DNA of 64,000 nt from Candidatus Poribacteria bacterium (GCA_965198235.1 OZ240248.1:1728001-1792000), one strand, 5' to 3'. Numbered from the stretch's first letter, positions 7,182 through 57,869 are shown. Notes: generated by a model not told the origin, from the sequence alone. Numbers and translations: made by a program.

Positions 7182-8144
7182 ATGCAACGCTTATTCAAAT
7201 GCCAGTTCTATTTGATAATGTTATTCGCCGCTGTGCTATTTATGATAGGCGCAGCCATAAGTGATGATCACACAGATGTATCTACACAGGAGATTCAGCA
7301 AATGCCCCAAAAACCGACGGTCATGATCCTCGGCAGTACGCACTTGGCGAATGATGGATTGGATGTTTATAATACGAAAATGGATGATGTCCGCGCTCCG
7401 AAACGCCAACGCGAGATCGAACAGTTGGTTGAACAACTCAAGGAATTTAAACCTACCAAGATAGCTCTTGAACGGGATGAAAAAACGCATGGTGCTGGAA
7501 CGCAAACAGAGTATCAAGGCTACCTGAAAGGAACCTATGAACTCAAGCGAAACGAACATGACCAGATTGGCTTCCGATTGGCAAAGCAGATGGGACATCC
7601 GAAGCTCTACTGCGTTGATTACCGAATTGATTACCGAAAAGATGACCCCATCATTCCTTTTGATGACTTTGATTTGACTTTGATAGACTACATTGGGTTC
7701 GCAAAAACACACAATCAGGAACACCTTCTGCCTCCGCCACCTACTGAAGGGAAACTGACTCAAGGTGAAAAGGGCGTAACTTGGATTGAACCTGAGAAAT
7801 ACGTACCAATCATTGACATGTACATACGAGGGAACGACTCCGAAGGCATACGCATGGATCATCAACAATATATACGGTGGATCGCGCGTGTCGGGCTCGG
7901 CGACCAATACCCGGGGGCGAATTGGGTTGCCCATAGTTGGTATGCCCGAAATCTCAAGATTTTTGTGAACCTGACGCGGATCACCGAATCTGCCGATGAC
8001 AGGATTCTGTTGATTATCGGTGCTGGGCATGTTTTCCTCGTTCAGCAGTTTCTTGAGGATTCGGGAGATTATATCGTTGAAAGTCCGCTAAAATACTTGA
8101 ATGCGGACACTGCAGAGAAATCTACATCCGAGGAGACCGATTGA
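7182..8144 (+). CDS. Secreted DUF5694-family protein
   Basis: Close paralog of 1353..2273, including the same upstream ataggagaaagt RBS context. Confidence 0.8.
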   Translation: MQRLFKCQFYLIMLFAAVLFMIGAAISDDHTDVSTQEIQQMPQKPTVMILGSTHLANDGLDVYNTKMDDVRAPKRQREIEQLVEQLKEFKPTKIALERDEKTHGAGTQTEYQGYLKGTYELKRNEHDQIGFRLAKQMGHPKLYCVDYRIDYRKDDPIIPFDDFDLTLIDYIGFAKTHNQEHLLPPPPTEGKLTQGEKGVTWIEPEKYVPIIDMYIRGNDSEGIRMDHQQYIRWIARVGLGDQYPGANWVAHSWYARNLKIFVNLTRITESADDRILLIIGAGHVFLVQQFLEDSGDYIVESPLKYLNADTAEKSTSEETD

Positions 8145-13383: not shown

Positions 13384-13488
13384 GTGGGGGCCAAGGCGTG
13401 TAAGCCCAACCAGCGGGCGGGCTGGATATACGAGGGAAATCGTTCCTTCTACAGCTGTTCTGACCGAACCGCAAGGAAGATTAAAGAA
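13384..13488 (+). repeat. Intergenic element (CCGCAAGG end type, atypical hairpin) ending at a start codon
   Basis: ggatatacg...ctgaccgaaccgcaaggaagattaaagaa directly before ATG 13489; homologous to the 27173 and 33164 copies. Confidence 0.65.
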
Positions 13489-14771: not shown

Positions 14772-16823
14772 ATGAAAACGCCGAAGTTTACAACGGCAAA
14801 GGCTCGCGTAGCGCACGGGTGTATCACAAACAAACAGGTAAAACAGAAAAATTATTCAATAGTCTTATTCATTACACTATTGTTTACATTAATCACAAAC
14901 TTACAAACCTGGGCTCAAGAAAACACACAGACCGTTCTGAAAGAACTTCCCGCTCTCAAAACAGATCAGGCACCCACCATTGATGGGGTCCTCAACGATG
15001 CTTGTTGGAAAGACGCGCCACAAGCCATCGGTTTCACCGATGAACGCACTGAAAAGCCAGCAAAGAACCAATCGGTCGGTCAGGTCGTTTACACGGACAC
15101 AGCCATCTACGTCGGACTTCACCTCTACGATGATATGCCTGACAAAATTGTGGCGCGTCAGACCAAAGACCAGACGCGAATCCGCGGAGAAGACTGGGTT
15201 TCCTTCAGTCTTGACCCGTTTCACACACATCAGTTTTCTGACAGAAATTTCTTTATCGTAAATCCTCTCGGCACAAAATACGCTCACCTTGCCACGGGAC
15301 GTGCTGAGAGAAGCGAATGGATTGGGCTCTGGAAAACAGCAGCGCAGATTGTGGAAGATGGATGGGTCGTGGAGATGGAAATCCCGTGGCAGATGCTCGA
15401 TTATCCCGACACAACTAAACCTGTTCGGATGGGTATCAACATTGACAGATTGCAACAACGCACCGGTGAACGTTCTTGGTGGTGTGATCTTGGTGTTCAG
15501 GAATTTCGGGAAAACGATGGACACTGGATTGATGTGCTGCCCCCGCCTCGTCAGCGCGAACTCAAGGTGTTACCCTATCTGATTGGCGGTATCAGTGAAA
15601 CGGAAACCGAAGAGAGAGAATATACTGCTCGCGCAGGCGCGGACATCCGTTATGAGGTTACCCCGCAACTGCGACTCATTGGCACAGCAAACCCTGACTT
15701 TGACAATATTGAACAGGCTGTGGAGGGCATCGATTTCTCTTACGGTGAACGCTACGTGCCCGATCGCCGTCCGTTCTTTTCGGAAGGCGGCAACGTCTAT
15801 CGCCTTGGTCGCCTGTTCCATTCGCGGCGGATAATGGATATGGACGGAGGGCTTAAACTCTTCGGGAAAATCGGGAAAAACACCTCAGTAGGCACCCTCG
15901 GCACCTATCACCGGAACAACCAGAACGTTATTCTTCAAGCCACGCAATCGTTAACAGCAACATCCAATATCAGCGCGGCGTTCCTTTCGCATCATCACCG
16001 GGACACCGGAGCGAACAATGTAGGTTATCTTTCTGGAGATGTACGCCACGGTAAATTTACAGTGGGTTCTAACCTCACTCAAACTTGGGCAGACGCATCG
16101 GATGGGAGGAATGGGTTCATCAGCCTAGGCTACAACGGATCGCTCTTCCAACCCTACCTGTCCGCGTTTTTTGTGGATCCGGATTTCGTCAATAGACTCG
16201 GTTACCGTCCGTTCACCGGATACCGTGGTGTAGGTTTGGGTAGCTTCATACAAAACGAATGGCGTGAAGGACTCTTCCGCAGAGCATCCGCTTCTATCCA
16301 AAGCCAGATCTCTAATACTTACGAAGGCGAGGTCTTCCGGCGTGACTTCTATGTATCTTCACTTATCCTAATGCATAGTGACTATGCACTCGCCGCTGGA
16401 TGGAGGGGCGGGCAATTTGAAGAATTCAGCGATAGCGTTTTCAGCATTGGATTCCGTGCACGCGCTTCTGATAGGTTCAACAATGTTGGTATAACCTACA
16501 ATTGGGGTGAACAGGCAGGGGAGACGATTCATCGCATCAGCGGAAATCTAAATCTCCGCGCCTACGACTTCACGGTAGGACTCGCCTCACGCGTCCAATG
16601 GCATTTTGAGAGGCGCTACCAACAGATTCTAACGCTCACATACGACTTCAGTCCCGCCTTAAGCCTCGGTAGTCGACTAATCTGGCAAGCAGAAGGTGTT
16701 AATATCTATTTCGCATTACGCCGTTCTGGCTATGTTGGCACCGATTTTTTCATCATCCTCGGCGATCCCAACGCCTCGGAATTCAAACAACGTCTGATTG
16801 CTAAGGTGATCCGTGCATTTTAG
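14772..16823 (+). CDS. CBM9-like / DUF5916 family outer-membrane protein
   Basis: Signal-like segment; APTIDGVLNDACW, GWVVEMEIPW, NPDFDNIE, DRRPFFSEG, LFHSRRI; beta-barrel-like C-terminus ending in F. Confidence 0.75.
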   Translation: MKTPKFTTAKARVAHGCITNKQVKQKNYSIVLFITLLFTLITNLQTWAQENTQTVLKELPALKTDQAPTIDGVLNDACWKDAPQAIGFTDERTEKPAKNQSVGQVVYTDTAIYVGLHLYDDMPDKIVARQTKDQTRIRGEDWVSFSLDPFHTHQFSDRNFFIVNPLGTKYAHLATGRAERSEWIGLWKTAAQIVEDGWVVEMEIPWQMLDYPDTTKPVRMGINIDRLQQRTGERSWWCDLGVQEFRENDGHWIDVLPPPRQRELKVLPYLIGGISETETEEREYTARAGADIRYEVTPQLRLIGTANPDFDNIEQAVEGIDFSYGERYVPDRRPFFSEGGNVYRLGRLFHSRRIMDMDGGLKLFGKIGKNTSVGTLGTYHRNNQNVILQATQSLTATSNISAAFLSHHHRDTGANNVGYLSGDVRHGKFTVGSNLTQTWADASDGRNGFISLGYNGSLFQPYLSAFFVDPDFVNRLGYRPFTGYRGVGLGSFIQNEWREGLFRRASASIQSQISNTYEGEVFRRDFYVSSLILMHSDYALAAGWRGGQFEEFSDSVFSIGFRARASDRFNNVGITYNWGEQAGETIHRISGNLNLRAYDFTVGLASRVQWHFERRYQQILTLTYDFSPALSLGSRLIWQAEGVNIYFALRRSGYVGTDFFIILGDPNASEFKQRLIAKVIRAF

Positions 16824-21032: not shown

Positions 21033-21360
21033 ATGAAACCACATAGAAATTATGCAATAGGGTTGCTTATCGCACTACTGTTTATGTCAACCACAAACCT
21101 ACAAACTTGGGCAGCAGAAAACACACAAACCGTTCAGAAAGAACTCCCGGCAGTCAAAACCGAGCAGCCACCCACCATTGATGGTATTCTCGATGATGCC
21201 TGTTGGCGAAACGCACCACAAGCTACCGGCTTCACCGATGAACGCACCGAAAAATCGGCAAAGAATCAATCTGTCAAGTCTCACAATCGTTAACGGCGAC
21301 ATCCCAGTATCAGCAGTGCGTTTCTTTCGCACCATCGCCGTGACAGCGAAGCGAACAACT
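21033..21360 (+). pseudogene. Internally deleted paralog of the CBM9/DUF5916 gene
   Basis: Matches about 14850-15075, then jumps at about 21275 to sequence matching about 15935-16020. Confidence 0.85.
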
Positions 21361-22229: not shown

Positions 22230-22637
22230 ATGGGTCCCGTTTTGGAAATTGGCGACCGATTTATCCGTCATGTCTATGTCTTGACAATCTGTCTCACCGT
22301 AGTCATTTCGGCAGTGTTGTTAGGATTCAAACGCCCCGCGCTCCCAAGTTTTCTGATCGGCAGTGCTATCAGTTTGAGTCTATTCTGGTCCATCGAATTT
22401 GTGGTTCGGCGGCTTGTTCGGCCCGGAAAAACGAAGTCCACAAAGTACTTATTGGGTTTCATCGCAATTGGTAAATACACGGTGCTCGGTGGACTCCTGT
22501 ATCTCCTGTTTAAAATGGAGTGGATGAATATCTACGCGTTCGCTGGTGGGATTGCTTTAGTGCAAGGTGCTATCATTATCAAAGCGATCGGTTTGATGGT
22601 GACTATCCTTTCAAATAAGGACCCGAATCAGTCTTGA
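22230..22637 (+). CDS. atpI: ATP synthase subunit I
   Basis: Four TM helices; located before atpB. Confidence 0.75.
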   Translation: MGPVLEIGDRFIRHVYVLTICLTVVISAVLLGFKRPALPSFLIGSAISLSLFWSIEFVVRRLVRPGKTKSTKYLLGFIAIGKYTVLGGLLYLLFKMEWMNIYAFAGGIALVQGAIIIKAIGLMVTILSNKDPNQS

Positions 22638-22642
22638 GGCGA

Positions 22643-22850
22643 TTTTCTAACTATGGGAATATAGGTGCTGCTCCAAATGTAAAGCATTCTCACTGCGAAG
22701 CAAAATTATGCCATTTAAGGTATAATTTCATTTCGCAGCGGTCTTCATCGAATTCCAACCAGAAATCCTGGGTGCTCAAAGGTTTCTGACTTCACCCAGA
22801 CACCATCGTGAAACGAAGTGGAACGATGATCAGATTTAATAGTTTAAAAT
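22643..22850. repeat. Back-to-back pair of GNA-hairpin intergenic elements
   Basis: Minus-strand expanded-loop copy at 22643-22745 (homologous to 27318-27407); plus-strand catcgt-GAAACGAAGTGGA-acgatg at 22804-22828. Confidence 0.8.
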
Positions 22851-22860
22851 ACAACAAAAC

Positions 22861-23724
22861 ATGAAAAAAATACCATTTATCTGCTTGGTTGTCGGATTCA
22901 GTTTGGCAGCGGTGGCCGGGAGTTTCGCAGCAGAGGATGCCTCCTCAACGGAAACCCACTCCGATGACCATGGGCACCGCACGTGGCTCTACTCAATTTC
23001 ACGGCTACTACCCGATGACATCATTCCAGAACCCAGTCGGTGGCATCAACCCGACCTGATTCCAAACACATATTTTGCGGTTCTCGTCTTAGTGCTGTTT
23101 TTCATCTTCGTAACTCGGAAGTTGAAGCGGCTTCCGGAAGGAAAAGGACAAACCCTTTTAGAGTTGTTTGTCGGCGGCATAATTGATTTCTTCGGTGGAA
23201 TTTTAGGCGACCACGGCAGAAAGTATGTCCCATTCGTTGGCTCCTACTTCATCTTTATCCTTTCCCTGAACTATCTCGGCCTCATCCCAGGTTTTCAAGC
23301 GCCAACAGCAGATTTGAATACAACGCTCGCGCTCGGCATAACTGCTGTGTTAGGGGTTCAAATTATCGCTATCAAAGAGAATGGGATAGTCGGTTATCTC
23401 AAGCATCTCATCGGTGACCCGCCGTTATTGGGCGTTTTGATGTTTCCACTTGAGATAATTGCACAGTTATCTCGCGCGGGTTCTCTCGCTGTCCGTCTTT
23501 TCGGCAACATTTTTGGTGAAGAATCAGTGATTGTTGAGCTCACGAAACTGGGGCTCCTCGTCCTAATTGCTGGGGCTGTTCCAATCCTTCCGGTTCAAGT
23601 GCCGATGCTGTTCTTTGGATTGTTCGGTGGTTTTCTGCAAGCGTTCGTTTTCACCATCTTAACATCTATCTATATCGTGCTTTTCATAGAACACGATGAA
23701 GAAGCGCATGAAGCGCATCATTAA
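22861..23724 (+). CDS. atpB: ATP synthase Fo subunit a
   Basis: PTADLNTT, SLAVRLFGNIFGEE, LQAFVFTILTSIYI. Confidence 0.96.
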   Translation: MKKIPFICLVVGFSLAAVAGSFAAEDASSTETHSDDHGHRTWLYSISRLLPDDIIPEPSRWHQPDLIPNTYFAVLVLVLFFIFVTRKLKRLPEGKGQTLLELFVGGIIDFFGGILGDHGRKYVPFVGSYFIFILSLNYLGLIPGFQAPTADLNTTLALGITAVLGVQIIAIKENGIVGYLKHLIGDPPLLGVLMFPLEIIAQLSRAGSLAVRLFGNIFGEESVIVELTKLGLLVLIAGAVPILPVQVPMLFFGLFGGFLQAFVFTILTSIYIVLFIEHDEEAHEAHH

Positions 23725-23775
23725 TTCTGTGGGACAAGTAAAAGCTTGCCCCTATCCGTCCAAGGAGGACATTTT

Positions 23776-24081
23776 ATGATTTATTTAGCAGTGTTGGCGC
23801 TTGGTGTAACTTTAGGGTTACCGATCGCTGTTATTTTTGCCTCAACAGCGCAAGGCAGGGCAACAAGTACTGCTCTTGAAGGAATTGCACGTCAACCTGA
23901 GTCATCTGCGAGAATTCAAACCGCGATGATTATCGGTTTGGCACTCATCGAGTCGCTCGTTATCTATTCGCTGTTGATGTTCTTTGTCTTGCAGAGCAAA
24001 CTCCCCGAAGGCGAAATGCTGAGAGAGATGATTGATGCAGACGCGAAACGAGTTGCGACAGATGTCAGAGACGGAAATTAA
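23776..24081 (+). CDS. atpE: ATP synthase Fo subunit c
   Basis: IARQPE loop, IGLALIESLVIY; GGAGG RBS. Confidence 0.96.
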   Translation: MIYLAVLALGVTLGLPIAVIFASTAQGRATSTALEGIARQPESSARIQTAMIIGLALIESLVIYSLLMFFVLQSKLPEGEMLREMIDADAKRVATDVRDGN

Positions 24082-24208
24082 TATATCCCTTGACTGAAGA
24101 CGGACAGCGAGGCTTGCACGCCCAGACAGAGATGATGGGTTGGTGACAATGGCAGGTTGATATCGAGGCGTTACGTCTTCAATTTGAACAACAGAGTACA
24201 ATAAACTT

Positions 24209-24850
24209 ATGCGAAACATCAAACATAGGCTTTCGCTTCGCAAGAGACGCTTGCAAGCGGCACGCTACGGGACCCTATATGGATGCTGCTTCATTTTGAT
24301 GAGCATGTGCCTCAGCAGCGCGTTCGCCGCTGAAGCTCCTGCCGGTGAAGGTGGACTTTTGGCACTGCTCGGTATTGATCCGAAGACGATTATCATTCAA
24401 GTCATCGGTTTCCTTGTTGTGCTCGCGGTACTTTGGAAGTTTGTCTTCGGTAAGGTGGGTGGCCTCTTAGAGGAACGGCGCACCGAAATCACCACGCAGT
24501 CGGAGCAATTGAGGGCTGACCGCGAAGAATTGGACCGGCTCACCGCAGAGACGCGCCAACGTTTAGCCGATATTGAGACCGAAGCACAAGCCAAAATTCA
24601 AGCGGCGATTGAACAGGGGAATACTGAACGTCAGCAAATTCTCGTACAGGCACGGCAAGAGGCGGACGATGAAGTCGCAAGAGCCAGAGCAGAGATTCAG
24701 CGTGAAAAAGACGAGGCTATCTCAGAACTGCGAGGCGTTGTCGCTGAACTCGCCATTGATGCCGCCAGCAAAATCATAAGTGCGGAACTCAACGCAGAGA
24801 GGCATCAGCATATCATTGATGCATCTATTAGCAGGTTACCAATTTCTTAA
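24209..24850 (+). CDS. atpF: ATP synthase Fo subunit b (start uncertain; may be 24299-24305)
   Basis: QVIGFLVVLAVLWKFVF TM followed by coiled coil; ELAIDAASKII. Confidence 0.92.
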   Translation: MRNIKHRLSLRKRRLQAARYGTLYGCCFILMSMCLSSAFAAEAPAGEGGLLALLGIDPKTIIIQVIGFLVVLAVLWKFVFGKVGGLLEERRTEITTQSEQLRADREELDRLTAETRQRLADIETEAQAKIQAAIEQGNTERQQILVQARQEADDEVARARAEIQREKDEAISELRGVVAELAIDAASKIISAELNAERHQHIIDASISRLPIS

Positions 24851-24997
24851 CTATTAACACCTGAGTGCCATTCCATTCCATTCCATGGCGGTTTTCGGTG
24901 AATGCCAACCCGCTCCAGGTGCGCAAAGGTTTCTGACTTCACCAAACCCCCTCGTGAAACGAAGTGGAACGAGGCCCAGAGGCATATAATTAGAAAT
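24843..24997. repeat. Back-to-back pair of GNA-hairpin elements filling the atpF-atpH spacer
   Basis: Minus copy gccat-GGAATGGAATGGA-atggc (24867-24889) ends in the atpF stop; plus copy cctcgt-GAAACGAAGTGGA-acgagg (24950-24974) ends TTAGAAAT before ATG 24998. Confidence 0.85.
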
Positions 24998-25537
24998 ATG
25001 AGAGACATTCGGGTTGCAAAACCTTATGCACGCGCCCTATACGATGCAGCGGTGGAACAGAACGCCTTGGCACCTATTGTCGCAGATGTAGATAGGCTGC
25101 GAGAGTTGGTTGAACAGTCTGAGGAATTCACGCAATTAATCCACAGCCCTATTCTGTCTCCACAATTTAAGAGCGAGACGTTTCAGCAGCTTTTTACCGA
25201 TACGATGCAACCTCTGACCGTTAATTTTTTCAAACTCCTCGCGTTGAAGCAGCGTGAACGTTATCTCGTCGCGATCATGGATGTCTTTTCGGCAATGGTT
25301 GACGAGGCTGCTGGTAGGCTCGTCGCAAAAGTGACGACGGCTGTACCTATAACAGCCGAACAAGAGGAACGACTCGCCGAGCAATTAAGCACGTACTCAG
25401 GGAAACAGGTGCGGCTGGAGACCATAACTGACCCACAAATTCAGGGTGGATTCATCGTGCAGTTAGACGACACCGTTTTTGATGCAAGCGTTACAACACA
25501 GCTTCAACGCTTGAAGCAACAGCTTGCAAGCGGATAA
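24998..25537 (+). CDS. atpH: ATP synthase F1 subunit delta
   Basis: VAKPYARALY, DPQIQGGFIVQLDDTVFDAS. Confidence 0.95.
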   Translation: MRDIRVAKPYARALYDAAVEQNALAPIVADVDRLRELVEQSEEFTQLIHSPILSPQFKSETFQQLFTDTMQPLTVNFFKLLALKQRERYLVAIMDVFSAMVDEAAGRLVAKVTTAVPITAEQEERLAEQLSTYSGKQVRLETITDPQIQGGFIVQLDDTVFDASVTTQLQRLKQQLASG

Positions 25538-25657
25538 CGTACTGCGCGATTGTAAATGCATCTGCCTATTTTCTATAGGGTCGGGGCGATGTAGGGTGAA
25601 ACTCCCAAGGTTTTCCATCTTAAAGAAACGAGCGCGACTCCACAGAGGACTGAAAAT

Positions 25658-27172
25658 ATGGCAAGAGAAGTCCGACCGGACGAAATATCAAATATCCTTA
25701 AACAACAACTGCAACAGTTTGAACAGAACGTGGATGTCTATGACTCCGGCACGGTGCTGGAGGTAGGCGATGGCATCGCGCGGGTGCATGGGCTTGCCAA
25801 CGCTATGGCAAGTGAAATGATCGAATTTCCTAACGATGTCTACGGCATCGCTTTCAACCTCGAAGAAGACAATGTTGGTTGCGTTCTGTTCGGAGAAGAC
25901 CAACTCATACACGAAGGCGATACCGCCAAACGCACTGGAAGACTGCCGGAAGTACCCGTGGGTGAGGCACTTCTCGGACGGATTGTCGATGCACTCGGTC
26001 AACCTATTGATGGCTTGGGCGACATTGAAACTGAACATCGACTTCCGGTCGAACAGAAAGGTCTCGGCATTGTTCAACGTCAACCGGTTAGCGAGCCCCT
26101 TTACACAGGCTTAAAAGCTATTGACAGCTTAACACCGATCGGGAGAGGTCAGCGTGAACTGATTATTGGTGACCGTCGAACCGGCAAGACCGCCATTGCC
26201 TTGGATACTATCTTGAGTCAGAAAGATACAGATGTCTACTGTATCTATGTCGCTATTGGTCAAAAAGGTTCCACTTTGGCGCAAGTTGCAGCTACGCTTC
26301 GTGAGCATAACGCGATGGAGTATACGACTATCGTCTCATCACCTGCGAGTGCGCCGTCACCACTTCAGTACCTCGCACCCTATTCCGGTACTGCAATGGG
26401 TGAATACTTCAGGGACAACGGCAAACACGCCCTCATTATCTATGATGACCTAACGAAACACGCGTGGGCGTACCGTCAGATGTCACTGCTTTCACGAAGG
26501 CCTCCCGGTAGGGAAGCCTATCCGGGTGATGTCTTCTACCTGCACTCACGTCTGTTAGAACGCGCCGCAAAATTGAGCGATGAATTGGGCGGAGGTTCTC
26601 TCACTGCCTTGCCGATTATTGAGATCTTTGAAGGCGATTTGACGACCTATATTCCTACGAACGTTATCTCCATCACCGATGGACAGATATACCTCACGAC
26701 GGACCTGTTTAACCAAGGTGTGAGACCTGCGATCGATGTCGGGTTATCCGTTTCCCGTGTAGGTGGTGATGCCCAAGTGAAAGCGATGGATACACGAGAG
26801 GTCGCAGGGACCCTTAAACTCGATCTCGCGAGTTTTCGGGAAGTTGCTGCCTTTGCGCAATTTGGATCGGATTTGGACGCATCAACGCAATCCTTGCTTC
26901 TACGCGGCACACGGCTCGTTGAATTGCTGAAACAACCCGAATATCAACCGATGCCTGTCGAACGCGAAGTCGCCTCTATCTTCTGCGGCACCAACGGCTA
27001 TCTGGATGATGTCGAGGAAACAGAAGTGGCTCGGTTTGAATCCGAATTTCTGCAATATCTTGACAGGAATCACACAGAACTCCTCACAGAAATCGCAGAA
27101 ACAGGTTTGCTGGGTGATGAACTCCTTGAGACCTTACACGCTGCCGTGAAGACGTTCAAGGAAAATTTTTAA
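25658..27172 (+). CDS. atpA: ATP synthase F1 subunit alpha
   Basis: [39 protein letters not shown]. Confidence 0.98.
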
Positions 27173-27407
27173 CTGTTTTTTGATGATACCTTGCGGTTCA
27201 GTCAGGTGGGTGGCATAAATAGCGTTCATTTCCGTATATCCGCTCTCCACTTCGTTACGAGTTGCGCGCTAAAAAAACGTCAAAACGCCCAAACCCAGTT
27301 GAGACTTCACCAGAAACCCGCTCGTGATGAAATTAGGTTTCCTTAAATGGCATAATTTGTCTTAGCTTTACATTTGGAGAGCGGCCCAGGGGCCCATAGT
27401 TAAAAAA
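27173..27407. repeat. Back-to-back pair of GNA-hairpin elements filling the atpA-atpG spacer
   Basis: Minus copy with loop GTAACGAAGTGGA (27246-27258) and GAACCGCAAGG end; plus expanded-loop copy ending TTAAAAAA before ATG 27408. Confidence 0.85.
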
Positions 27408-28286
27408 ATGGCAACTTTACGAGAAATTCGCAGGCGTATCGCTAGCATTCAAAACATCGAGCAAGTCACTGATGCAATGCGCGTCGTGGCTGCTGCGCGG
27501 CTCCGCCGTGCCCAAGAAAATATTAATGCGACTCGTCCTTACGCTGATAAACTCAACACCATCTTAGGACACTTAATCTCGCAGATGGATACTGAAAATG
27601 AAGCACTGACACACCCGCTGCTTGAAACGCGTGAGATAAAGCATGCCTGCATCATTTCTGTCTCCTCAGACCGAGGGTTGTGTGGTAGTTTCAACAGTAA
27701 CGTTATTCGGACAACCACACAACGTATCCAACATTATCAAGAGAGTGGTGTCGATGTAACGCTCATCTGTATCGGTAGACGATCGCAAGAGCATTTTGCA
27801 CGGCGCGGTTACGACATCACCGATGCATACATCAATATTTTCCGTCAGCTCGAGTTCCAAACGGCTGTTGATGTTGTTCACGAGTTTGAACACCTTTATA
27901 CAGATAAAAAGATTGATAAAGTCGAGGTTATCTACAACAACTTCAAGTCTGCTATTCTCCAGACCGTGCTTGTTGAGCAGCTTCTCCCATTAGAGCCTGA
28001 AATACCGGAAGGTGATGAACTTTTTCTGGATTATATCTATGAACCGGGGCAGGTGGAACTCTTTGAAATGCTACTCGGCAAACATCTGAACATGCAAATG
28101 TGGAAAGTACTGCTGGATTCCAACGCGGCGGAGCAAGCAGCCCGAATGGCAGCGATGGAGAATGCCACGCAGAAGGCAAAAGAACTTATTGATGAGCTCA
28201 TTCTTCAACGCAATAGAGCACGTCAAACGCAGATCACGACGGAAATTTCTGAGATCGTAAGTGGTGCGGCTGCACTGGAAGGTTAA
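27408..28286 (+). CDS. atpG: ATP synthase F1 subunit gamma
   Basis: SSDRGLCGSFN, ARMAAMENAT, RARQTQITTEISEIVSGA. Confidence 0.98.
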   Translation: MATLREIRRRIASIQNIEQVTDAMRVVAAARLRRAQENINATRPYADKLNTILGHLISQMDTENEALTHPLLETREIKHACIISVSSDRGLCGSFNSNVIRTTTQRIQHYQESGVDVTLICIGRRSQEHFARRGYDITDAYINIFRQLEFQTAVDVVHEFEHLYTDKKIDKVEVIYNNFKSAILQTVLVEQLLPLEPEIPEGDELFLDYIYEPGQVELFEMLLGKHLNMQMWKVLLDSNAAEQAARMAAMENATQKAKELIDELILQRNRARQTQITTEISEIVSGAAALEG

Positions 28287-30787: not shown

Positions 30788-30808
30788 CCTTTCCTTCCCC
30801 ATTCTCCG

Positions 30809-30842
30809 GTAGGCGCGCTTTGTAAGCGCGCCCTTTTTTCTT
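30809..30842 (+). terminator. REP-like hairpin doubling as intrinsic terminator of the atp operon
   Basis: gtaggcgcgct-ttgta-agcgcgcc followed by a T run; inverted copy at 40001-40027. Confidence 0.75.
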
Positions 30843-33163: not shown

Positions 33164-33678
33164 TTTTCTAATTTTCCTTTTTTTAATTTTCCTTGCGGTT
33201 CGTTTAGGGGGTTTGGTGGTTTTCACGTTCCTTTCCGTAGACCCGCTTTCCACTTCGTTCCAAGCTACGCGCTATTTTAACTGAAAGGAGCGCGAACCGA
33301 TTTCTAATTTTCCTTGCGGTTCGTTTAGATGGTTTGGTGATTTTCACGTTTCCTTTCCGTAGACCCGCTTTCCACTTCGTTCCAAGCTACGCGCTATTTT
33401 AAGTGAAAGGAGCGCGAACCGATTTCTAATTTTCCTTGCGGTTCGTTTAGATGGTTTGGTGATTTTCACGTTTCCTTTCCGTAGACCCGCTTTCCACTTC
33501 GTTCCAAGCTACGCGCTATTTTAAGTGAAAGGAGCGCGAACCGATTTCTAATTTTCCTTGCGGTTCGTTTAGATGGTTTGGTGATTTTCACGTTTCCTTT
33601 CCGTAGACCCGCTTTCCACTTCGTTCCAAGCTACGCGCTATTTTAAGTGAAAGGAGCGCGAACCGAGCGCGCTCCTAC
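33164..33678 (-). repeat. Four tandem 121-122-bp copies of the GNA-hairpin element, closed by a REP palindrome
   Basis: ccttgcgg at 33191, 33312, 33434 and 33556; copies 2-4 identical, copy 1 differs at several positions; aggagcgcg-aaccgag-cgcgctcctac at the right end. Confidence 0.92.
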
Positions 33679-33698
33679 AAGTGACCGCTGACGGCTAT

Positions 33699-34586
33699 TT
33701 ATAATGCCATATCGAACTTCGTGCCGGTTACATTGCCTTTTACGTAAGCTTCACGGAAGAGCGTCTGGCGTTTGGGAGGCATTTCGTCAAGCAACGCTTG
33801 TGGAGGCTTTGAGAGACTCCATCGCTTATCCACAGAGTTGTAAGCGTTGAAAACCGCGACTCGGTCGGTGTCAGGGTTTTGCCACGGCTGCCCGCTATGC
33901 GTAATTGCCTCCGTAAAGATGATGACAGATCCAGCTGGGCAGGAATAGGTATCCCAAAACTTCCAGCCTTGTGTGTGGGCACCCTCTGGGGCAGTATAAG
34001 CCGCCTTGTGGCTCCCTGTAATGAACATTGTTCCGCCGTCACCTTTCTCCACGGGATTGAGTTCCCAGACGACGCGCGTCAAACCACTATAAGCCTGACC
34101 CGGAAGACACGAATACTGGTGACAATCTCCGGGCATCCGCAACATACCATTGCCGTTATGGGCATGGAACGTGAAAGGCGTTTCGTCCGTTGTAGAGCGC
34201 AACGCCGGAAAACTCATCTCCATGCGGAACCCGTAACAGGTATCTGAAGCAAGATAGGACGACGCGAGAAATTCGTTTCCGAATGCCACGATGACCGGAT
34301 GATCTGTCAGTTTTTCCAAAGGACCCCCGTAAGTCGAGCGGTGATGTTGCGGAATCGTTTCAGGTTCGCGCTTTAAGCGGTAACAGAAATCACGCATCTC
34401 CTTGATCTCCGATTCCGTTAACACGCCCGGCACCAAGAGCCATCCATTTTTGTCAAACAGATATTTCTGTTCCTGCGTTAAAGGAACAACCGCTTTACCA
34501 TCAGCGTTTGTTTGCGTAAGATCGGCAGGTACTGTCGCCAACGGACTGCCTAAGTCTTTGTTAAATTTACCTAATTGTTCCATCAT
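33699..34586 (-). CDS. PhyH-family Fe(II)/2OG oxygenase with HxG motif
   Basis: YLFDKNGWL, FHAHNGNG, GGTMFITGSHK, EAITHSG, DRV. Confidence 0.85.
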   Translation of the reverse strand: MMEQLGKFNKDLGSPLATVPADLTQTNADGKAVVPLTQEQKYLFDKNGWLLVPGVLTESEIKEMRDFCYRLKREPETIPQHHRSTYGGPLEKLTDHPVIVAFGNEFLASSYLASDTCYGFRMEMSFPALRSTTDETPFTFHAHNGNGMLRMPGDCHQYSCLPGQAYSGLTRVVWELNPVEKGDGGTMFITGSHKAAYTAPEGAHTQGWKFWDTYSCPAGSVIIFTEAITHSGQPWQNPDTDRVAVFNAYNSVDKRWSLSKPPQALLDEMPPKRQTLFREAYVKGNVTGTKFDMAL

Positions 34587-35627: not shown

Positions 35628-35706
35628 TTTTCAGCCTCCATGGTGTGTGAGCGGGTCGAAAAGACCTCGCATTGTTAAAAATCCTTTCATCATCCAGAGA
35701 CGGTTG

Positions 35707-35769
35707 GACTTAACCAAAAACCATCACGAAACGTAGTGGAGTGATGCCCAGGAGCACATAATTAAGAAA
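35707..35769 (+). repeat. GNA-hairpin element supplying the stop codon of the convergent gene
   Basis: gacttaacc, catcac-GAAACGTAGTGGA-gtgatg, cccaggagcacataaTTAAGAAA. Confidence 0.85.
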
Positions 35770-36604
35770 AGAGTTCCGTAATCAACTGTGCATTCTGACC
35801 GATCTGATCGCCGAATTGTTGATACATACCGAGCAAAAGTGGATCAATCGGTTTGGTGTTTTCTAACGCGAATTTCACCTCTTCCCGAATTTGTTCTGGG
35901 CTTCCGATGGTCCTGCCTGCTGCGAGCACTTTGAAAATGAGGCACGGTTTATCTGTCCGTTGGATCGCTTTACACATTTCATCGCGATCCTCCCGCGCAT
36001 AGACTTCGCCCAGAGCCGCGTAGCCGAATTTCTCTCTGAACTTATCGGCACCACCGTGAAGGTTATAAAGTCCAGTCATATAGTAGTCTATATCCCAATC
36101 CTCATCTTCAGCGATATGCAGGAGTTTCGGATCATGAACGGACAGGCCAACGAGAGCCCCGGTATCACGAACCCGTTTGAGGATGTCCTGTAGGTGATCG
36201 AGCCTGTTTTCGCGTAAACACCTGTGACCAACACCACCACCGTGTGGTGCCATACCGAACGGGTCGTGCTTTGCTGCTTCAAAGACAGCGTCCGGTTCGT
36301 CATACCAAAGTCCGCCTGGACTGAGGCAGAACCAGTTCAATGTACCACCTTCATCTCGGTACCGCTGCAAGTCAGAGAGCGAGCGTTCCGTTAGGCTATT
36401 CTGCCAGCCATTAAGCCCAGCCTCCTCTGCCCGCTTGAGCGTTGCCACGACGCGTTCGGGTGTATGATATTCCTGCTGATGCTGTGAAAGAAGTTTGTTA
36501 AAGTGGGAATAGCCGTAAATCGGGTTATCCCCAATCACCAATTTACTGATCTGATGATTACAAAAAGAGACTTTTGGTAAGGTTGCCACTGGTTTATCCT
36601 CCAA
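35762..36604 (-). CDS. Aldo/keto-reductase-like TIM-barrel protein
   Basis: ISKLVIGDNPIYGYSH, GLSVHDP, FKVLAAGR. Confidence 0.7.
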   Translation of the reverse strand: MEDKPVATLPKVSFCNHQISKLVIGDNPIYGYSHFNKLLSQHQQEYHTPERVVATLKRAEEAGLNGWQNSLTERSLSDLQRYRDEGGTLNWFCLSPGGLWYDEPDAVFEAAKHDPFGMAPHGGGVGHRCLRENRLDHLQDILKRVRDTGALVGLSVHDPKLLHIAEDEDWDIDYYMTGLYNLHGGADKFREKFGYAALGEVYAREDRDEMCKAIQRTDKPCLIFKVLAAGRTIGSPEQIREEVKFALENTKPIDPLLLGMYQQFGDQIGQNAQLITELFS

Positions 36605-36630: not shown

Positions 36631-37701
36631 CTAACCGAACAGAAATCCTTCCGAAACAGATGTGTCAATTTCACGCACAAGATGCATCGTCAATTCCAAT
36701 GCTGCGGTGTAGTCATCAATGTTAATTATTGAAACATGGCTATGGATATAACGCGACGGCACGCCGAGCACAACCGATGGCACGCCTCTGCCGGATTGAT
36801 GGATTGCGCCACCATCCGTTCCACCGGATTGACGCACCCCAAGTTGATACGGTATTTCGTGTCGCTTTGCTGTCTCAATCACAAAATCTGCCAACTTCGG
36901 ATTGACAATCATTGAAGAATCGATTATCCGAATTTGTACACCGCCGCCGAGTTTCCCTTGTATCGCGCCGACGCTTAATCCGGGGGTATCATCAGCAGGG
37001 GGTCCCTCAAGTACTATTGCGAGATCGGGTTCCACACTTGCCGCCATCGTCTTCGCGCCTCGCAAACCGATTTCTTCCTGAACACTCCCCGCACCGATAA
37101 CGGTGTTCGGGTGTTCTTCAAGTTTCAAAAGTGCCTCAATTACAACCGAGACACCGACACGATTATCGAACGCTTTGGCAGAGAACAATTTGCTATTTTT
37201 CAACGGCATAAAAGGTCCGTAGGGTGCAATTGGACATCCCGGTAATACACCAAACTCCTCCATTGCTTGTTCTTCATTCTCCGCACCTATGTCAATAAAG
37301 AGGTCTTTCATATCTAAGACTTTATCGCGCGATCCTGAGAGCAAATGAGGGGGTGTAGAGCCGACGACTCCCGGCACTTTACCCAACTTCGTTGTGATTG
37401 TAACCCGTTGTGCTAAAAGTGTATGTGCCCACCATCCACCGAGAGGCAGAAACTTGACGAACCCGTTATCCGTGACGCTTTGCACAACAAAACCGATCTC
37501 GTCTAAGTGTGAATCCAGCAGAATTCGGGGCTGTTCAGCATTTCCAGGGCGCGTGCAGAAGATACTCCCTAATCTGTCCGTGCCGATTGGACCAACACCG
37601 GAAACAGCATCACGAAAAATCTCGCGTACTTCTGTTTCGTAACCGGGAATTCCATCTGCTTGAGTCAATGATTTGAGCAGTTCAATTGAAGTTTCAGCCA
37701 T
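36631..37701 (-). CDS. M42 family metallopeptidase
   Basis: DSHLDEIG, KAFDNRVG, VQEEIGLRGA, GGTDG, RYIHS. Confidence 0.93.
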   Translation of the reverse strand: MAETSIELLKSLTQADGIPGYETEVREIFRDAVSGVGPIGTDRLGSIFCTRPGNAEQPRILLDSHLDEIGFVVQSVTDNGFVKFLPLGGWWAHTLLAQRVTITTKLGKVPGVVGSTPPHLLSGSRDKVLDMKDLFIDIGAENEEQAMEEFGVLPGCPIAPYGPFMPLKNSKLFSAKAFDNRVGVSVVIEALLKLEEHPNTVIGAGSVQEEIGLRGAKTMAASVEPDLAIVLEGPPADDTPGLSVGAIQGKLGGGVQIRIIDSSMIVNPKLADFVIETAKRHEIPYQLGVRQSGGTDGGAIHQSGRGVPSVVLGVPSRYIHSHVSIINIDDYTAALELTMHLVREIDTSVSEGFLFG

Positions 37702-37740
37702 CGTTGCATTCCTTTGATAATTGTGCTGTAATTTGTGAGC

Positions 37741-37769
37741 ATTATAGCACGTCTCCGATTTTGTGCCAA
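37741..37769 (-). promoter_or_regulatory. sigma70 promoter of the M42 peptidase
   Basis: Minus strand TTGGCA-17 nt-TATAAT with TGn. Confidence 0.6.
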
Positions 37770-37808
37770 CTTTTAAGTGGTAGCATCCCAGAGCCATTCA
37801 GTTTCCGT

Positions 37809-37870
37809 GTAGGAGGGAACTCCGATTCCCAACTTCTTCTTCTGTAGGAGCGATCTCCGAATCGCGACTC
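37809..37870. repeat. Tandem GTAGGAG-type REP units
   Basis: gtaggagggaactccgattccc and gtaggagcgatctccgaatcgc; same family at 52903-52960. Confidence 0.7.
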
Positions 37871-37939
37871 CTTCTAATATAAGTTGCCAACTTCAAGTAA
37901 AAGCCCAACGGCGAAAGGTGTATAGAAAACGCTTTTAAT

Positions 37940-37969
37940 TTGACACCAACCTGTTTAGTATGCTATATT
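37940..37969 (+). promoter_or_regulatory. sigma70 promoter
   Basis: TTGACA-18 nt-TATATT with TGn. Confidence 0.5.
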
Positions 37970-38090
37970 AATCTTAATTGCCGCGGAGGCAAGCACACAA
38001 ATTACTGTCAGCAAAATCTGCGTTGATGTCCTCAGATGAACAGTTATGCATCAAAATTCACCAGAAGTTGATAGTCAAGGACAGGAGCCA

Positions 38091-39962: not shown

Positions 39963-40060
39963 CTATAGTAGAGTTTACAATTGGCGATGCAACCTCAATC
40001 GGCGCGCTTACAAAGCGCGCCTACCGGTAGATGTCTATATATTTTATATTCCACCATAAT
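39963..40060. repeat. REP-containing intergenic element between convergent genes
   Basis: ggcgcgcttacaaagcgcgcctac core with weakly inverted ends. Confidence 0.55.
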
Positions 40061-48245: not shown

Positions 48246-48301
48246 CCAACGTGATGGCGTGCTTCCCTTGAGGTTACGGAACCTCACTAACAACCTACCC
48301 C

Positions 48302-48363
48302 TACTTAACCGAAAATCTGCCTGAAACGAAGTGGAAGGCAGCCCAGGAGCCATAAATTAAAAA
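48302..48363 (+). repeat. GNA-hairpin element ending at a start codon
   Basis: ctgcct-GAAACGAAGTGGA-aggcag, cccaggagccataaaTTAAAAA before ATG 48364. Confidence 0.85.
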
Positions 48364-51706: not shown

Positions 51707-51940
51707 ATTATCTGATTTCCTTGGGCGGTGCTTTGTAAAAACGCAAAAGAACAGACCATAACCATGGAAAAAGCAGATTACAAATCCGATTCTACAGATG
51801 GGATTAAAACTGTTCCTGACTCAAGGCGGGACTTTCTTGCCAGGTTGGGCAAAGGGGCAAGGTTACCTCGGAAATGTTATTCACAGGGTGCCTGTCTCGG
51901 TAGTCGCCTAAACAGAAATGCGTGAAAATTGGTTCTCCAT

Positions 51941-52047
51941 CTTTTCTGGTTCGCGAGACCTAAGCCCGTAATGTAATGGAGGGCGACTCTAAAAAAAAAT
52001 CTTCAATGCCCAAACCACATTACTTAACCGCAAGGAAAATTAAAAAT
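51941..52047 (+). repeat. GNA-hairpin element ending at a start codon
   Basis: gccc-GTAATGTAATGGA-gggc, ttaaccgcaaggaaaaTTAAAAAT before ATG 52048; near-identical to 55636-55744. Confidence 0.85.
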
Positions 52048-52902: not shown

Positions 52903-52960
52903 TGTAGGAGGGAACTCCGATTCCTGACTCTGCTTGTAGGAGGGAACTCCGATTCCCGAC
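52903..52960. repeat. Tandem GTAGGAGGGAACTCCGATTCC REP units
   Basis: Two direct copies; same family as 37809. Confidence 0.75.
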
Positions 52961-52992
52961 CTCTGACTGAAAACCGATGGCTAACAGCCAAT

Positions 52993-54273: not shown

Positions 54274-55635
54274 TTAGTCCATTAATCGCGCATTATATTG
54301 CCGCTCGGTATGCTGATATCTACCGAACAGGTCGGGTTGAAAAGGAGTAGGTGTGTAGATGTAGACAGCGTCGCTATACGGATCATAGAGGATTACCTCT
54401 TCACGTGTGTCGCCGCAGACATCCGCAGGAAAGCAGTGGTACCATCCCATTTTGCCGCCAGTGGGGGGCGGCAGTTCAGGGAACGTCACCACCTTGTCTC
54501 CTGCACTATCGAAAAGTGCAGCTGGGCTATAAATCAATTCACAAGCTTCGTCCCCGTGCCAGCGGATAACTTCCAAGCCTGTATTGTTCGGTGTTTCATC
54601 GACGTTAAATCGACTGTTAATCTGCCCGTTGCTGTCTACTACCATCAGGTCCGTGTGATGCCCGTTATAGCGGATAACCAAGGCGTTTTCAGACGCGTCT
54701 GGTAGTAATCTGCCACACCGAATCTCTTGTCCGTGCGGCACAACGTCAAAGCCGAGCGAGAGGATTGGATTACCCTCGGCATCAACCACCTGTCCACCGC
54801 CGGAGAGGATAGCCCGGTTCCTGCCGTTCCATTCGGAAACTAAAACCGAGTCCATGTTGTCGCCAAAAAAGTGATTCCAGAGGACCGTGCCGTCGGAAGC
54901 GAGTCCGAAATTGCCACCGTTGACTTCGTCGAGTCCGTCGCCATTAAAGTCGCCGACGGCTGGGATATATGCGGAGTGCTTTGGATAGCGAAACCACTCG
55001 TCGGTATACTGCCAGAGCAGTTCCAATTTATGGTTAAAAGCGAGCAGATTCACACCTACCTTCACGACAAAATCTTGGGGTTGTGCATTTCCGCAGAGGT
55101 TGGCAATCATCAATCGTTGATGGACGTAGTTGGAGATATGGAGTTCACCTTCAGCGGACGCATTACACTGGCGCAGCGCATCCGGCGCGAGGGTCCGTTT
55201 GACAGCACCCGTCGCACCGTCTAAAATCATTAGGCGAATTGCAGACAGATCCCATTTACTCACTTCTGGAGCATTCGCGTCTACCCAGAAGCAGATGACC
55301 TCTGCCTGTCCATCGGCATCTATATCGTGAATAGCGACGGGGCCGGGTCGGTCGGGTGAGAGGGTCGTTAAAGTGGTATCCTTCGCATCCGCATCTCTGA
55401 TTTCGAGATGTTTGTCACCGAGGGACCAGAGGGGTTCACCTTCCAACGTGAACGCACCGAGGAAACACGGATGAATACCGCCGAGCGATTTGTACACGAG
55501 AAAGTCGACTGTTCCGTCGCCGGTCAGATCGCCGATTCGGATGTCGCCACCCCACTCGTTTCCCGATGTTTCATTCAGGAATACGTCTGGAATTGCGATT
55601 CGTTTATAAAGATGTGCTGATTGTGGTGTGTCCAT
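54274..55635 (-). CDS. FG-GAP beta-propeller protein, rhamnogalacturonan-lyase (PL11)-like
   Basis: Repeated GDLTGDG, DIDADG, GDFNGDG and ADVCGDTREE Ca-binding motifs. Confidence 0.7.
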   Translation of the reverse strand: MDTPQSAHLYKRIAIPDVFLNETSGNEWGGDIRIGDLTGDGTVDFLVYKSLGGIHPCFLGAFTLEGEPLWSLGDKHLEIRDADAKDTTLTTLSPDRPGPVAIHDIDADGQAEVICFWVDANAPEVSKWDLSAIRLMILDGATGAVKRTLAPDALRQCNASAEGELHISNYVHQRLMIANLCGNAQPQDFVVKVGVNLLAFNHKLELLWQYTDEWFRYPKHSAYIPAVGDFNGDGLDEVNGGNFGLASDGTVLWNHFFGDNMDSVLVSEWNGRNRAILSGGGQVVDAEGNPILSLGFDVVPHGQEIRCGRLLPDASENALVIRYNGHHTDLMVVDSNGQINSRFNVDETPNNTGLEVIRWHGDEACELIYSPAALFDSAGDKVVTFPELPPPTGGKMGWYHCFPADVCGDTREEVILYDPYSDAVYIYTPTPFQPDLFGRYQHTERQYNARLMD

Positions 55636-55744
55636 CTTTTCTGATTCGCGAGACCTAAGCCCGTAATGTAATGGAGGGCGACTCTATAGAGAAAACCTTC
55701 AATGTCCCAGTTTACGCCACTTAACCGCAAGGAAAATTAAGAGA
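55636..55744 (+). repeat. GNA-hairpin element filling the whole intergenic space
   Basis: Begins immediately at the minus-strand ATG 55635; loop GTAATGTAATGGA at 55663-55675; end overlaps the stop at 55737-55739. Confidence 0.85.
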
Positions 55745-56501: not shown

Positions 56502-56564
56502 ATTTTTAACTATGGCCTCCTGGGCATCGTTCCACTTCGTTTCACGATGGTTTTCGGTTCAGTC
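56502..56564 (-). repeat. GNA-hairpin element ending at a start codon
   Basis: Minus strand gactgaaccgaaaac-catcgt-GAAACGAAGTGGA-acgatg-cccaggaggccatagTTAAAAAT-ATG. Confidence 0.88.
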
Positions 56565-56616
56565 TGTCCCAACTGGGGAGATGAACGGCTTCAAGAATTT
56601 GATGAAGTATATCTTC

Positions 56617-57714: not shown

Positions 57715-57778
57715 TTTTTTAATGTATTGCTTCTGGGCTGCCTTCCATTTCATTTCAGGCAGGTTTTTTGTTAATTCG
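57715..57778 (-). repeat. GNA-hairpin element ending at a start codon
   Basis: Minus strand ctgcct-GAAATGAAATGGA-aggcag-cccagaagcaatacaTTAAAAAA-ATG. Confidence 0.85.
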
Positions 57779-57869
57779 CGACTGGTTTTGAGGATTTGAT
57801 CGGTTTTTCTTCTGTGACAAGAGAAGCTCCTGTAATGAGGCGGACAGGTACGAGATCAGTTAGTTTCCG

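Follow-up and report, generated by a model that had tools for sequence, protein, structure and literature searches.

In the genome of a sponge-symbiotic Candidatus Poribacteria bacterium, short hairpin-bearing repeats sit exactly on gene boundaries: read outward, their ends run directly into start codons, and on the other strand the same ends supply the last codon and the stop of the adjacent gene. The window analysed here is a stretch of 64,000 nucleotides (G000:C1:1728001-1792000) from this 5.17-Mb genome (G000; 48% G+C, two contigs, 96.3% complete), and the repeats fill spacers of its ATP synthase (atp) operon around positions 22638..27407, where Pfam confirmed the identities of atpI, atpB, atpF, atpH and atpG. 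The original prediction held that a TTARRAA(W) end directly precedes the ATG of eight genes in the window (13489, 24998, 27408, 33163-, 48364, 52048, 56501-, 57714-) and that the same end makes three convergent TCT-TAA stops (atpF, ATT TCT TAA; 35762, ..LFS*; 55737), and every one of these junctions holds. The reading we favour, with modest confidence, is that these are genus-restricted small non-coding repeats, similar to miniature inverted-repeat transposable elements (MITEs) or to REP2, whose termini serve as a portable start context and stop.

The repeating unit is a hairpin-bearing half-element of ~70-90 nt, and two units joined head to head give an element of ~150 bp with both ends facing outward. 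Each tail passes from ..ACCAGAAACC into a hairpin with a 6-bp stem and a 13-nt loop of GAAACGAAGTGGA or a variant; beyond the complementary stem arm follow CCCAGGAG, (C)CATAG and TTAAAAAA. The terminal module (hairpin, CCCAGGAG, (C)CATAG, TTAAAAAA) is common to several hairpin families, and the same terminus is carried by other bodies: one called 'B-type' (..CCGCAAGGAAAATTAAAAAT), one whose variant loop holds a nested insert of ~41 nt, and one with another hairpin, in which the loop is GACAACGGA. Stem arms covary: all six base pairs form in 242 of 400 loop instances on contig C1, as opposed to 13% after re-pairing the arms among copies, and at least 12 distinct stem sequences occur there in at least 6 copies each. 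Loop positions 5 and 9 covary as well (C..G or T..A), closing a GNA triloop, a structure that is unusually stable in DNA. Back-to-back outward pairs number 61 (122 of 349 anchored ends), with a modal anchor-to-anchor distance of ~141 nt, and only 3 pairs face inward. The two ends of a pair are no more alike than random ends (19.8 versus 19.9 of 38 positions), and stems within one pair were identical in 0 of 47 cases where 5.1 were expected. No long open reading frame (ORF) lies inside these small, dispersed units of ~70-150 bp. Searched against Rfam, the window gave nothing at gathering score, and 22600-27450 gave nothing even at E <= 1. An identity as integron attC sites was rejected, the best TIGR02249 score being 46.9 bits against a cut-off of 265 and the copies being dispersed, also inside the atp operon.

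The elements themselves host smaller repeats. A mini-insert of ~41 nt (..CCTTAAATGGCATAATTTG..) sits within the hairpin loop of many copies, for example at window positions 22660-22720 and 27330-27375. At C1:789087-789127 the 99.5%-identical haplotype, contig C2, has 2 nt in place of this insert, which is therefore polymorphic at a very short evolutionary distance. Copies of the palindromes associated with RAYT-like genes (GCACTCCAGCGGAGTGC and CACCCCGTAGGGGTG types) are also nested inside hairpin elements.

Genome-wide docking was counted with an element-end profile trained on 124 copies of one hairpin family only; of its 414 matches at E < 1e-3, the 349 with an anchored terminus (hereafter tails) form the denominator, at least 4 of them being counted twice because contig C2 is a 99.3-99.5% duplicate of C1:775767-815774. 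Genes (4074) came from our own crude codon-score caller, and docked ORFs had to be coding-scored and at least 60 aa long. By this count 104 tails are start-docked, with a coding-scored ORF beginning within ~1 nt of the terminus (92 ATG and 12 GTG or TTG), 49 supply a stop, 28 abut a stop just outside, 147 are free and 21 fall inside a gene call. The histogram of distances from element end to start or stop, proposed as a check of the original prediction, is far from random: ATG lies at offset 5-9 from the anchor T in 110 of the 349 tails (68 at offset 8, 27 at offset 7), and each of the offsets 10-27 accounts for 1-10. At the stop-supplying tails, the stop of the convergent gene is the reverse complement of the anchor TTA and its last codon also comes from the element; convergent stops lie 7-10 nt out in 26 cases, with 1-5 at each other position. 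The 49 proteins terminated in this way end in Phe (41), Leu (4) or Ser (4), and 14 of the 61 pairs are docked at both ends. The ATG itself is absent from most element copies.

A simple motif search gives a similar picture. TTARAAAWATG occurs 157 times in the genome and 14 times in a reversed control (11-fold), and 140 of the 156 sites on C1 precede coding ORFs. A script assigned these 156 sites to A-type (35), A-like (31), B-type (33) and other (57) classes; by eye, many of the last have a further hairpin family, leaving few true orphans such as 62095.

Tails are concentrated between genes that run in the same direction, with 299 of 343 in co-directional spacers (87%, versus 69% of intergenic bases) and a depletion in divergent spacers (25 of 343, versus 21% of intergenic bases). 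A same-strand upstream gene is found at 95 of 101 docked starts, compared with 79% genome-wide, and of the solo tails in co-directional spacers 118 point downstream and 77 upstream. The elements thus positioned, mostly between co-directional genes, appear to be co-transcribed with their neighbours. The docked genes are functionally unrelated; they belong to unrelated Pfam families, and a functional regulon was rejected on that ground.

Three spacers of the atp operon had been described as back-to-back, outward-facing pairs, and atpI-atpB, atpF-atpH and atpA-atpG indeed each hold two outward ends. A full element (24842..24997) makes up the whole atpF-atpH spacer: atpF takes its final two codons and its stop (TAA, 24848-24850) from the left terminus ATTTCTTAA, and the right terminus TTAGAAAT abuts the atpH ATG at 24998. 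A composite element (27167..27407) likewise occupies the whole atpA-atpG spacer, its B-type end on the reverse strand giving TTT TAA, the Phe codon and stop of atpA, and its A/C-type terminus TTAAAAAA abutting the atpG ATG at 27408. The composite element of the atpI-atpB spacer (22642..22849) begins with a reverse-strand left end 4 nt past the atpI TGA, has a nested insert of the 41-nt type in its loop, and does not abut on the right, where 11 nt separate its end (anchor 22843) from the atpB ATG at 22861. This element is also present in relative G006, and relatives G018, G014 and G004 have an unrelated spacer of ~60-80 nt; in runs X2 and X5 a joint skips 22643-22853. RNA evidence consists of assembled contigs of RNA libraries, in which contig-free stretches are uninformative; one metatranscriptome contig (23913-25026) runs from atpF through the element into atpH, and a second covers 26444-27355.

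The length of the atpF-atpH spacer varies between 9 and 191 nt in 12 congener loci (AtpA identity 94-100%). Element-free AtpF alleles end in ..RLPTE*, ..PTEQR* or ..PADSR*, followed by an AGGTGA-type ribosome-binding site (RBS) 8 nt before the ATG; two of them (L005 and L006, PTE*/PTEQR*) have spacers of only 9-15 nt. Filled alleles end in ..RLPIS* or ..RLPS*, followed by the element and then by TTAGAAAT-ATG, with 8 native bases kept before the ATG in one (L011). AtpA divides the 12 loci evenly: six end in KENF* and continue into the element, and six without it read KENW plus 3-26 residues, with an atpG spacer of 2 to ~90 nt after their own atpA stop. In the atpH-atpA spacer of relatives, B-type elements are docked on the atpA ATG, and none is found there in G000. 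Aligned across relatives, the atp spacers thus differ in the presence of elements and carry altered C-termini, as static leaders at identical positions would not.

Two features of the relatives deserve separate mention. In four loci (L003, L008, L009 and L010) the C-terminus of AtpA is extended by 23-26 residues, acidic or rich in Thr and Pro, and stops 2 nt before the atpG ATG; this extension is missing wherever an element supplies the stop. Element-free atp spacers (L003, L004, L007 and L009-L012) contain a simple repeat of GTCAGT/ATCAGT-like hexamers (TTATCGGTTATCAGTCGTCAGTT type), and a unit of another short repeat (TGTAGGAGGGAACTCCGATTCCC type) is found within atpA-atpG spacers of relatives.

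Orthologous sites elsewhere show what the elements replace. An exact-pattern scan of public genomes yielded 50 stretches, 47 in Poribacteria records and 3 in metagenome-assembled genomes (MAGs) labelled 'uncultured bacterium'; among these 50 foreign copies, selected for CCCAGGAG, the end abuts an ATG in 34 by regular expression and in ~44 by eye. The docked genes were translated for 44 of them, and 43 matched G000, at 29 distinct loci. In G000, 18 of these 29 orthologs are docked at the same codon and 3 at a point 2-6 codons further upstream; another 7 have no docked end but a GGAG/GAGG-type leader at the same ATG, and one starts two codons upstream, where the ATG of the docked ortholog aligns with CTG. 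Of the 8 sites with docking elsewhere but none in G000, 7 therefore have a normal Shine-Dalgarno (SD) leader before the same ATG. Conversely, element-free alleles of atpH, atpG, 48364 and 57714 in congeners have an ordinary SD leader. At stops, element-free and docked C-termini differ (AtpA, KENW... versus KENF*; AtpF, PTE*/PADSR* versus PIS*; 35762, TELCEELR* versus TELFS*). Where an element is docked, the native SD leader is thus missing, and at stops the last 1-26 codons are lost or changed; the SD leaders and the longer or different C-termini of element-free alleles argue that the element replaces both signals. Within G000, start-docking is associated with the CCAGGAG block, being found in 34 of 60 tails with it versus 70 of 289 without (Fisher p = 2e-6). 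The 3' end of the 16S rRNA is canonical and carries CACCTCCTT.

Both the elements and their docking sites turn over within a single genus. G000 has 176 occurrences of the hairpin pattern, the highest count among 176 Poribacteria genomes; the 64 congeners have 0-78 each (62 of them one or more), genomes of other genera have 0-2, and a reversed control gives 0-1. When a 93-nt copy served as query in a BLAST-type search, one other congener and one sister-genus genome among 60 gave matches; this search is too insensitive for counts. TTARAAAWATG is enriched ~3-6-fold in most congeners and ~1-fold relative to control in other genera and families, so there is no phylum-wide initiation preference; the caveat that a general preference might account for part of the signal is largely refuted. 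Relatives are polymorphic for presence and absence in the atp spacers, at window sites and in hairpin counts: syntenic DNA has 8 A-type tails in the window versus 5, 3, 1 and 1 in four relatives, and of 13 window sites compared with these relatives four dockings (57714, 13489, 35762 and 55737) are specific to G000. Comparison of C1 with C2, a haplotype or strain variant of 40 kb of it, revealed no fresh A-type insertion, only the nested 41-nt loop insert and a 230-nt deletion. The 230 nt present in C2 and missing from C1 comprise a B-type element together with the final ~12 codons of the gene before it and the opening ~9 of the gene after it, and C1 has the two ORFs fused in frame.

The favoured explanation, which builds on the anatomy and hairpin covariation, the exact abutment, the signal replacement at orthologous sites, the restriction to one genus and the link between CCAGGAG and docking, would treat the elements as ready-made gene junctions between co-directional genes. 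Read outward, an end would set an SD-like purine block and an A-rich run directly before a start codon. For a gene running into the end on the opposite strand, the last bases of that end, TTT or TCT followed by TAA, would provide a Phe or Ser codon and a stop. A downstream gene would then begin right after the terminus, its native SD leader gone, and an upstream or convergent gene would end within the terminus, its native C-terminal codons and stop gone. A gene that had come to rely on the element for its start context or stop could not tolerate the simple loss of that element, and docked copies would persist across species while free copies turn over. Such retention may be what makes docked copies abundant, and the terminal module may drive translation initiation. 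The junctions themselves could stem from insertion with loss of adjacent DNA, or from later terminus-anchored deletions filtered by selection. Several termini have truncated older tails right behind them, or else a bare GTTAAAAAA remnant with an ATG directly after it, and one relative retains just the final ~16 nt of a B-type end in front of an ATG; these patterns fit terminus-anchored junctions, variable adjacent loss and turnover of the body at a stable docking point.

A number of observations weigh against this explanation. The SD-like block of the elements lies 14-15 nt from the ATG, when ordinary genes of this genome peak at 5-9 nt, so that a direct SD function is doubtful. The RNA-library contigs can hold DNA and show no transcript starts, ends, strand or processing, and the gene calls come from our own caller. 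A long terminal stem that would join stop and start was rejected, as the atpF-atpH spacer folds like its shuffles (z = -0.6); together with pair ends no more alike than random ones, this leaves a stop/start-juxtaposing stem unsupported. The docked fraction is 0.33-0.34 among copies most similar to their nearest copy and 0.24-0.26 among the least similar; docking that fails to rise with divergence is at odds with a ratchet working slowly after insertion, though ages could be blurred by gene conversion. The peak at 0 +/- 1 nt is sharper than selection on spacing alone predicts. By inspection, no target-site duplication flanks the 61 pairs, and comparisons of filled and empty sites show native sequence missing. 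No autonomous partner was found in G000, outward pairs at 600-5000 nt numbering 54 versus 58 inward ones. Matches to Y1 transposases across 65 genomes do not track hairpin counts either, genomes with 0 hairpins, for instance, having 4-5 of them.

Candidate mobilising enzymes and regulators in G000 were likewise set aside. No tail lies within 2.5 kb of the 6 IS630-type matches and one lies near the 16 IS4/IS5-type matches, and both groups were rejected as partners, their genes not being adjacent to element ends. Mobilisation by Y1/RAYT was rejected because the six Y1 genes of G000 are flanked by other palindromes and copy number shows no link; three RAYT-like Y1 genes (C1:606918-607262, 1898775-1899119 and 3853757-3854101) have their own flanking palindromes of the GCACTCCAGCGGAGTGC and CACCCCGTAGGGGTG types. 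CsrA-type regulation was dismissed because no CsrA was found in G000, and the idea that upstream genes read into the sense end to stop just before the ATG accounts for only 2 cases.

The sharpness of the abutment raises the question of how the junctions arise, which the original prediction had framed as a choice between insertion targeted to gene boundaries and a portable RBS and stop. The orthologous element-free SD leaders and longer C-termini speak for the portable branch; for targeting, neither a target motif nor a target-site duplication was found. If a transposase or recombinase nevertheless set the terminus at starts and at or just after stops, docking would be made on insertion, and the concentration of ATGs at offsets 8 and 7 would follow directly. 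The 28 ends that abut a stop just outside (with TTA right after the terminus in 12 of 26 on C1), the equally high docked fraction among the most similar and presumably youngest copies, and the recurrence of the same atpF-atpH junction in distantly related congeners with different element interiors all point the same way. Undocked termini, however, share no following motif beyond a mild T preference (next base T in 54%), filled sites lack 5-80 nt of native sequence and are not clean inserts, C-termini are altered and not preserved, no target duplication was seen, and searches of G000 for IS, Y1 and integrase genes gave no candidate enzyme, so that we regard targeting as unlikely. A reading in which the elements, or an enzyme acting at their termini, actively rebuild gene boundaries, joining the terminus precisely to an in-frame NTG/ATG or to an in-frame point near the 3' end of a gene with loss of the native RBS or stop, strikes us as slightly less doubtful. 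Even CTG or TTG codons would be turned into starts in this way, at which the shifted junctions of two loci (L022 and L041) hint; if true, the element would be impossible to lose, a boundary-capturing selfish strategy not known from bacterial repeats.

Other explanations concern what the ends do. The hexamer (C/A)AT(A/C)(G/A)T that ends 7 nt before the ATG could be the -10 box of an outward promoter giving leaderless mRNA, and a transcript start at the A of the ATG would explain the need for exact spacing. By eye, positions A2 and T6 of the hexamer are invariant and lie a fixed 6-7 nt from the ATG in A-type, B-type and other ends, ATG makes up 92 of the 104 docked starts, and outward promoters are described for Correia elements and REP2 in excerpts of PMC3184786. 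Yet no sigma-70-type -35/-10 pair was seen in window tails (a weak scan, with a consensus that may not be poribacterial), docked ends are depleted in the divergent, promoter-bearing spacers (6 of 101 versus 21% expected) and lie within operons, atp among them, and the link between CCAGGAG and docking would have no role; we consider such a promoter improbable. A host regulatory leader, in which the purine-rich loop of the hairpin binds a factor and a post-transcriptional regulon has spread by recombination in the manner of REP2, would account for the conserved loop, the covariation of the stem and within the loop, the never-identical stems of one element and the retention of docked copies at orthologous genes across species. 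The unrelated functions of docked genes, the same ends lying antisense at stops, the 147 of 349 free tails, a copy number of 0 to 176 within one genus, and the lack of a CsrA and of any Rfam match even at E <= 1 stand against it, and it seems to us as improbable as the promoter. Finally, the junctions might be static leaders or a general preference for an initiation context, with no element at all: ordinary starts are A-rich (47-49% A at -5 to -3), and 62095 has AGGAGG and TTAGAAAA with no hairpin. Congeners nevertheless vary in whether a given gene has the element, enrichment of TTARAAAWATG is confined to this genus, and most such sites have a recognisable repeat body, which leaves this last explanation hardly credible.

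The window holds further docked elements outside the atp operon. A single half-element (35691..35769, plus strand) provides the Ser codon and stop (TCT TAA, 35762-35764 on the reverse strand) of gene 35762-36604(-), which in four relatives lacks the element and ends TELC(E/A/T)...* five codons later; in all four runs there is a joint with 69 other letters here. A second (48287..48363, plus strand), with a CTGCCT/AGGCAG hairpin and CCCAGGAG, abuts the ATG at 48364 of an alpha/beta-hydrolase gene; it is also present in G006 and G004, and G018 has a AAAGGTGG RBS in its place. On the minus strand, the half-element 56502..56581 abuts the ATG at 56501 of a xylose-isomerase-like TIM-barrel gene, a start that is docked in all five genomes, in the four relatives by a B-type end instead, and the G000-specific half-element 57715..57792 abuts the ATG at 57714 of a VWA-domain gene, where G018 and G014 have a spacer of ~27 nt ending in GGAAACG(R)AAT-ATG and G004 one of ~46 nt with the same ending. 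B-type sequences are docked in a similar fashion. An end at 13459..13488 (plus strand; ..CCGCAAGGAAGATTAAAGAA) abuts the ATG at 13489 and is absent here in G014 and G004, and the element 51936..52047 (plus strand) abuts the ATG at 52048 of a metallophosphoesterase gene, a site at which G004 has only the last ~16 nt of a B-type end (AAGGAAAATTAAAAAT) before the ATG. The element 55636..55744 (plus strand) fills its whole spacer, as had been stated: 2 nt separate its head from the ATG of gene 54274-55635(-), and its terminus is the TCT TAA of gene 55737-56501(-). In G006, G018 and G014 this junction is a stop, 2 nt and an ATG, and G004 has other sequence. Four to five B-type ends are arranged head to tail with a 122-nt period at 33164..33700 (minus strand), the last abutting the ATG at 33163 of a PhyH-family gene.

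Other repeats in the window were seen in passing. The B-type array has fewer copies at 33178-33669 in public-run contigs (a joint from 33202 to 33546) and in an RNA-library contig that skips 33282-33647. Adjacent pairs of the TGTAGGAGGGAACTCCGATTCCC-type repeat lie at 37808-37872 and 52903-52964, and the depth of public-run contigs spikes at 37401-38000. Three paralogous genes (1-1296, 1353-2273 and 7182-8144; families D2-D5, D7 and D9), two of them adjacent, share 71-82% DNA identity; a perfect 27-nt inverted repeat (CCGGTAGGCGCGCTTTGTAAGCGCGCC) occurs at 30806-30832 and 40001-40027, 9.2 kb apart, and a 235-nt direct repeat of 80% identity (family D8) at 14843-15077 and 21041-21275, 6.2 kb apart.

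Small bacterial repeats are usually seen as spacer filler that occasionally touches a gene. Here, ~3-4% of the genes of one genome start at the same 8-nt terminus, among them those for the delta and gamma subunits of ATP synthase, and some fifty genes end in a repeat-encoded Phe or Ser and stop. Were the terminus to function as a start context, it would amount to a natural, portable junction between cistrons and be an example of a selfish repeat becoming indispensable, and the annotation of gene starts and C-termini in Poribacteria MAGs would be affected. The range from 0 to 176 copies within one genus offers a natural series for finding the mobilising enzyme.

Full-text searching of the literature found no paper tying Poribacteria to miniature inverted-repeat elements and, among the papers listed for REP or interspersed repeats, none that mentions Poribacteria; the comparison with known systems below draws largely on excerpts of one review (PMC3184786). 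Neisseria REP2 and Borrelia IR-A/IR-B, as described there, lie directly in front of genes, to which they bring a promoter, an RBS and an ATG. They resemble the present elements in size (~120-150 bp), internal stem-loops, a position next to gene starts and an unexplained origin and spread. Their RBS fused to the ATG may have a counterpart here, where 104 of 349 ends abut starts, the SD-like block lies 14-15 nt off and most copies lack the ATG. REP2 differs, in the same account, in having ~26 copies, no terminal inverted repeats, a promoter, and a set of co-regulated genes that it marks, whereas the present elements have hundreds of ends, outward pairs, no promoter that we could detect and unrelated genes, and their other strand gives stops. 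MIRUs, whose ends overlap the adjacent genes of a polycistron (PMC3184786), are alike in being small, co-transcribed intercistronic operon repeats with filled and empty sites between species; the corresponding traits here are the 87% of tails in co-directional spacers, the 49 stops inside ends and the 14 of 61 pairs docked at both ends. MIRUs are described there as having tetranucleotide direct repeats and internal ORFs and as often being tandem, in contrast to the present elements, in which no direct repeats or coupling ORF were found; the likeness is by description only.

Correia (CREE), ERIC, RUP and BOX elements share the non-coding length of ~100-160 bp, the inverted ends, co-transcription and the capacity to carry expression signals, in Correia elements promoters, and some copies of CREE and other MITEs extend the 3' or 5' ends of genes (PMC3184786). 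The present elements are MITE-like in being small, dispersed, non-coding and polymorphic with outward inverted ends, and in G000 no target duplication or related IS was found. CREE and other MITE families, in the review's account, have defined target duplications or IS relatives and fuse with genes only occasionally, in contrast to the sharp genome-wide 0-nt peak involving ~3-4% of genes seen here. REP/REPIN elements, which RAYT (Y1) transposases mobilise, are similar in that hairpin units occur as singlets and inverted doublets, in hundreds of copies evolving within a genome; here, by contrast, the RAYT-like genes have other palindromes, Y1 counts are untied to copy number and the stems of a doublet are never identical. 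Set against these accounts, the poribacterial elements constitute no new category; they combine traits of REP2, MIRU and Correia repeats on a much larger and more exact scale, and may help to explain how REP2-like repeats spread, a question that the excerpts of PMC3184786 leave open.

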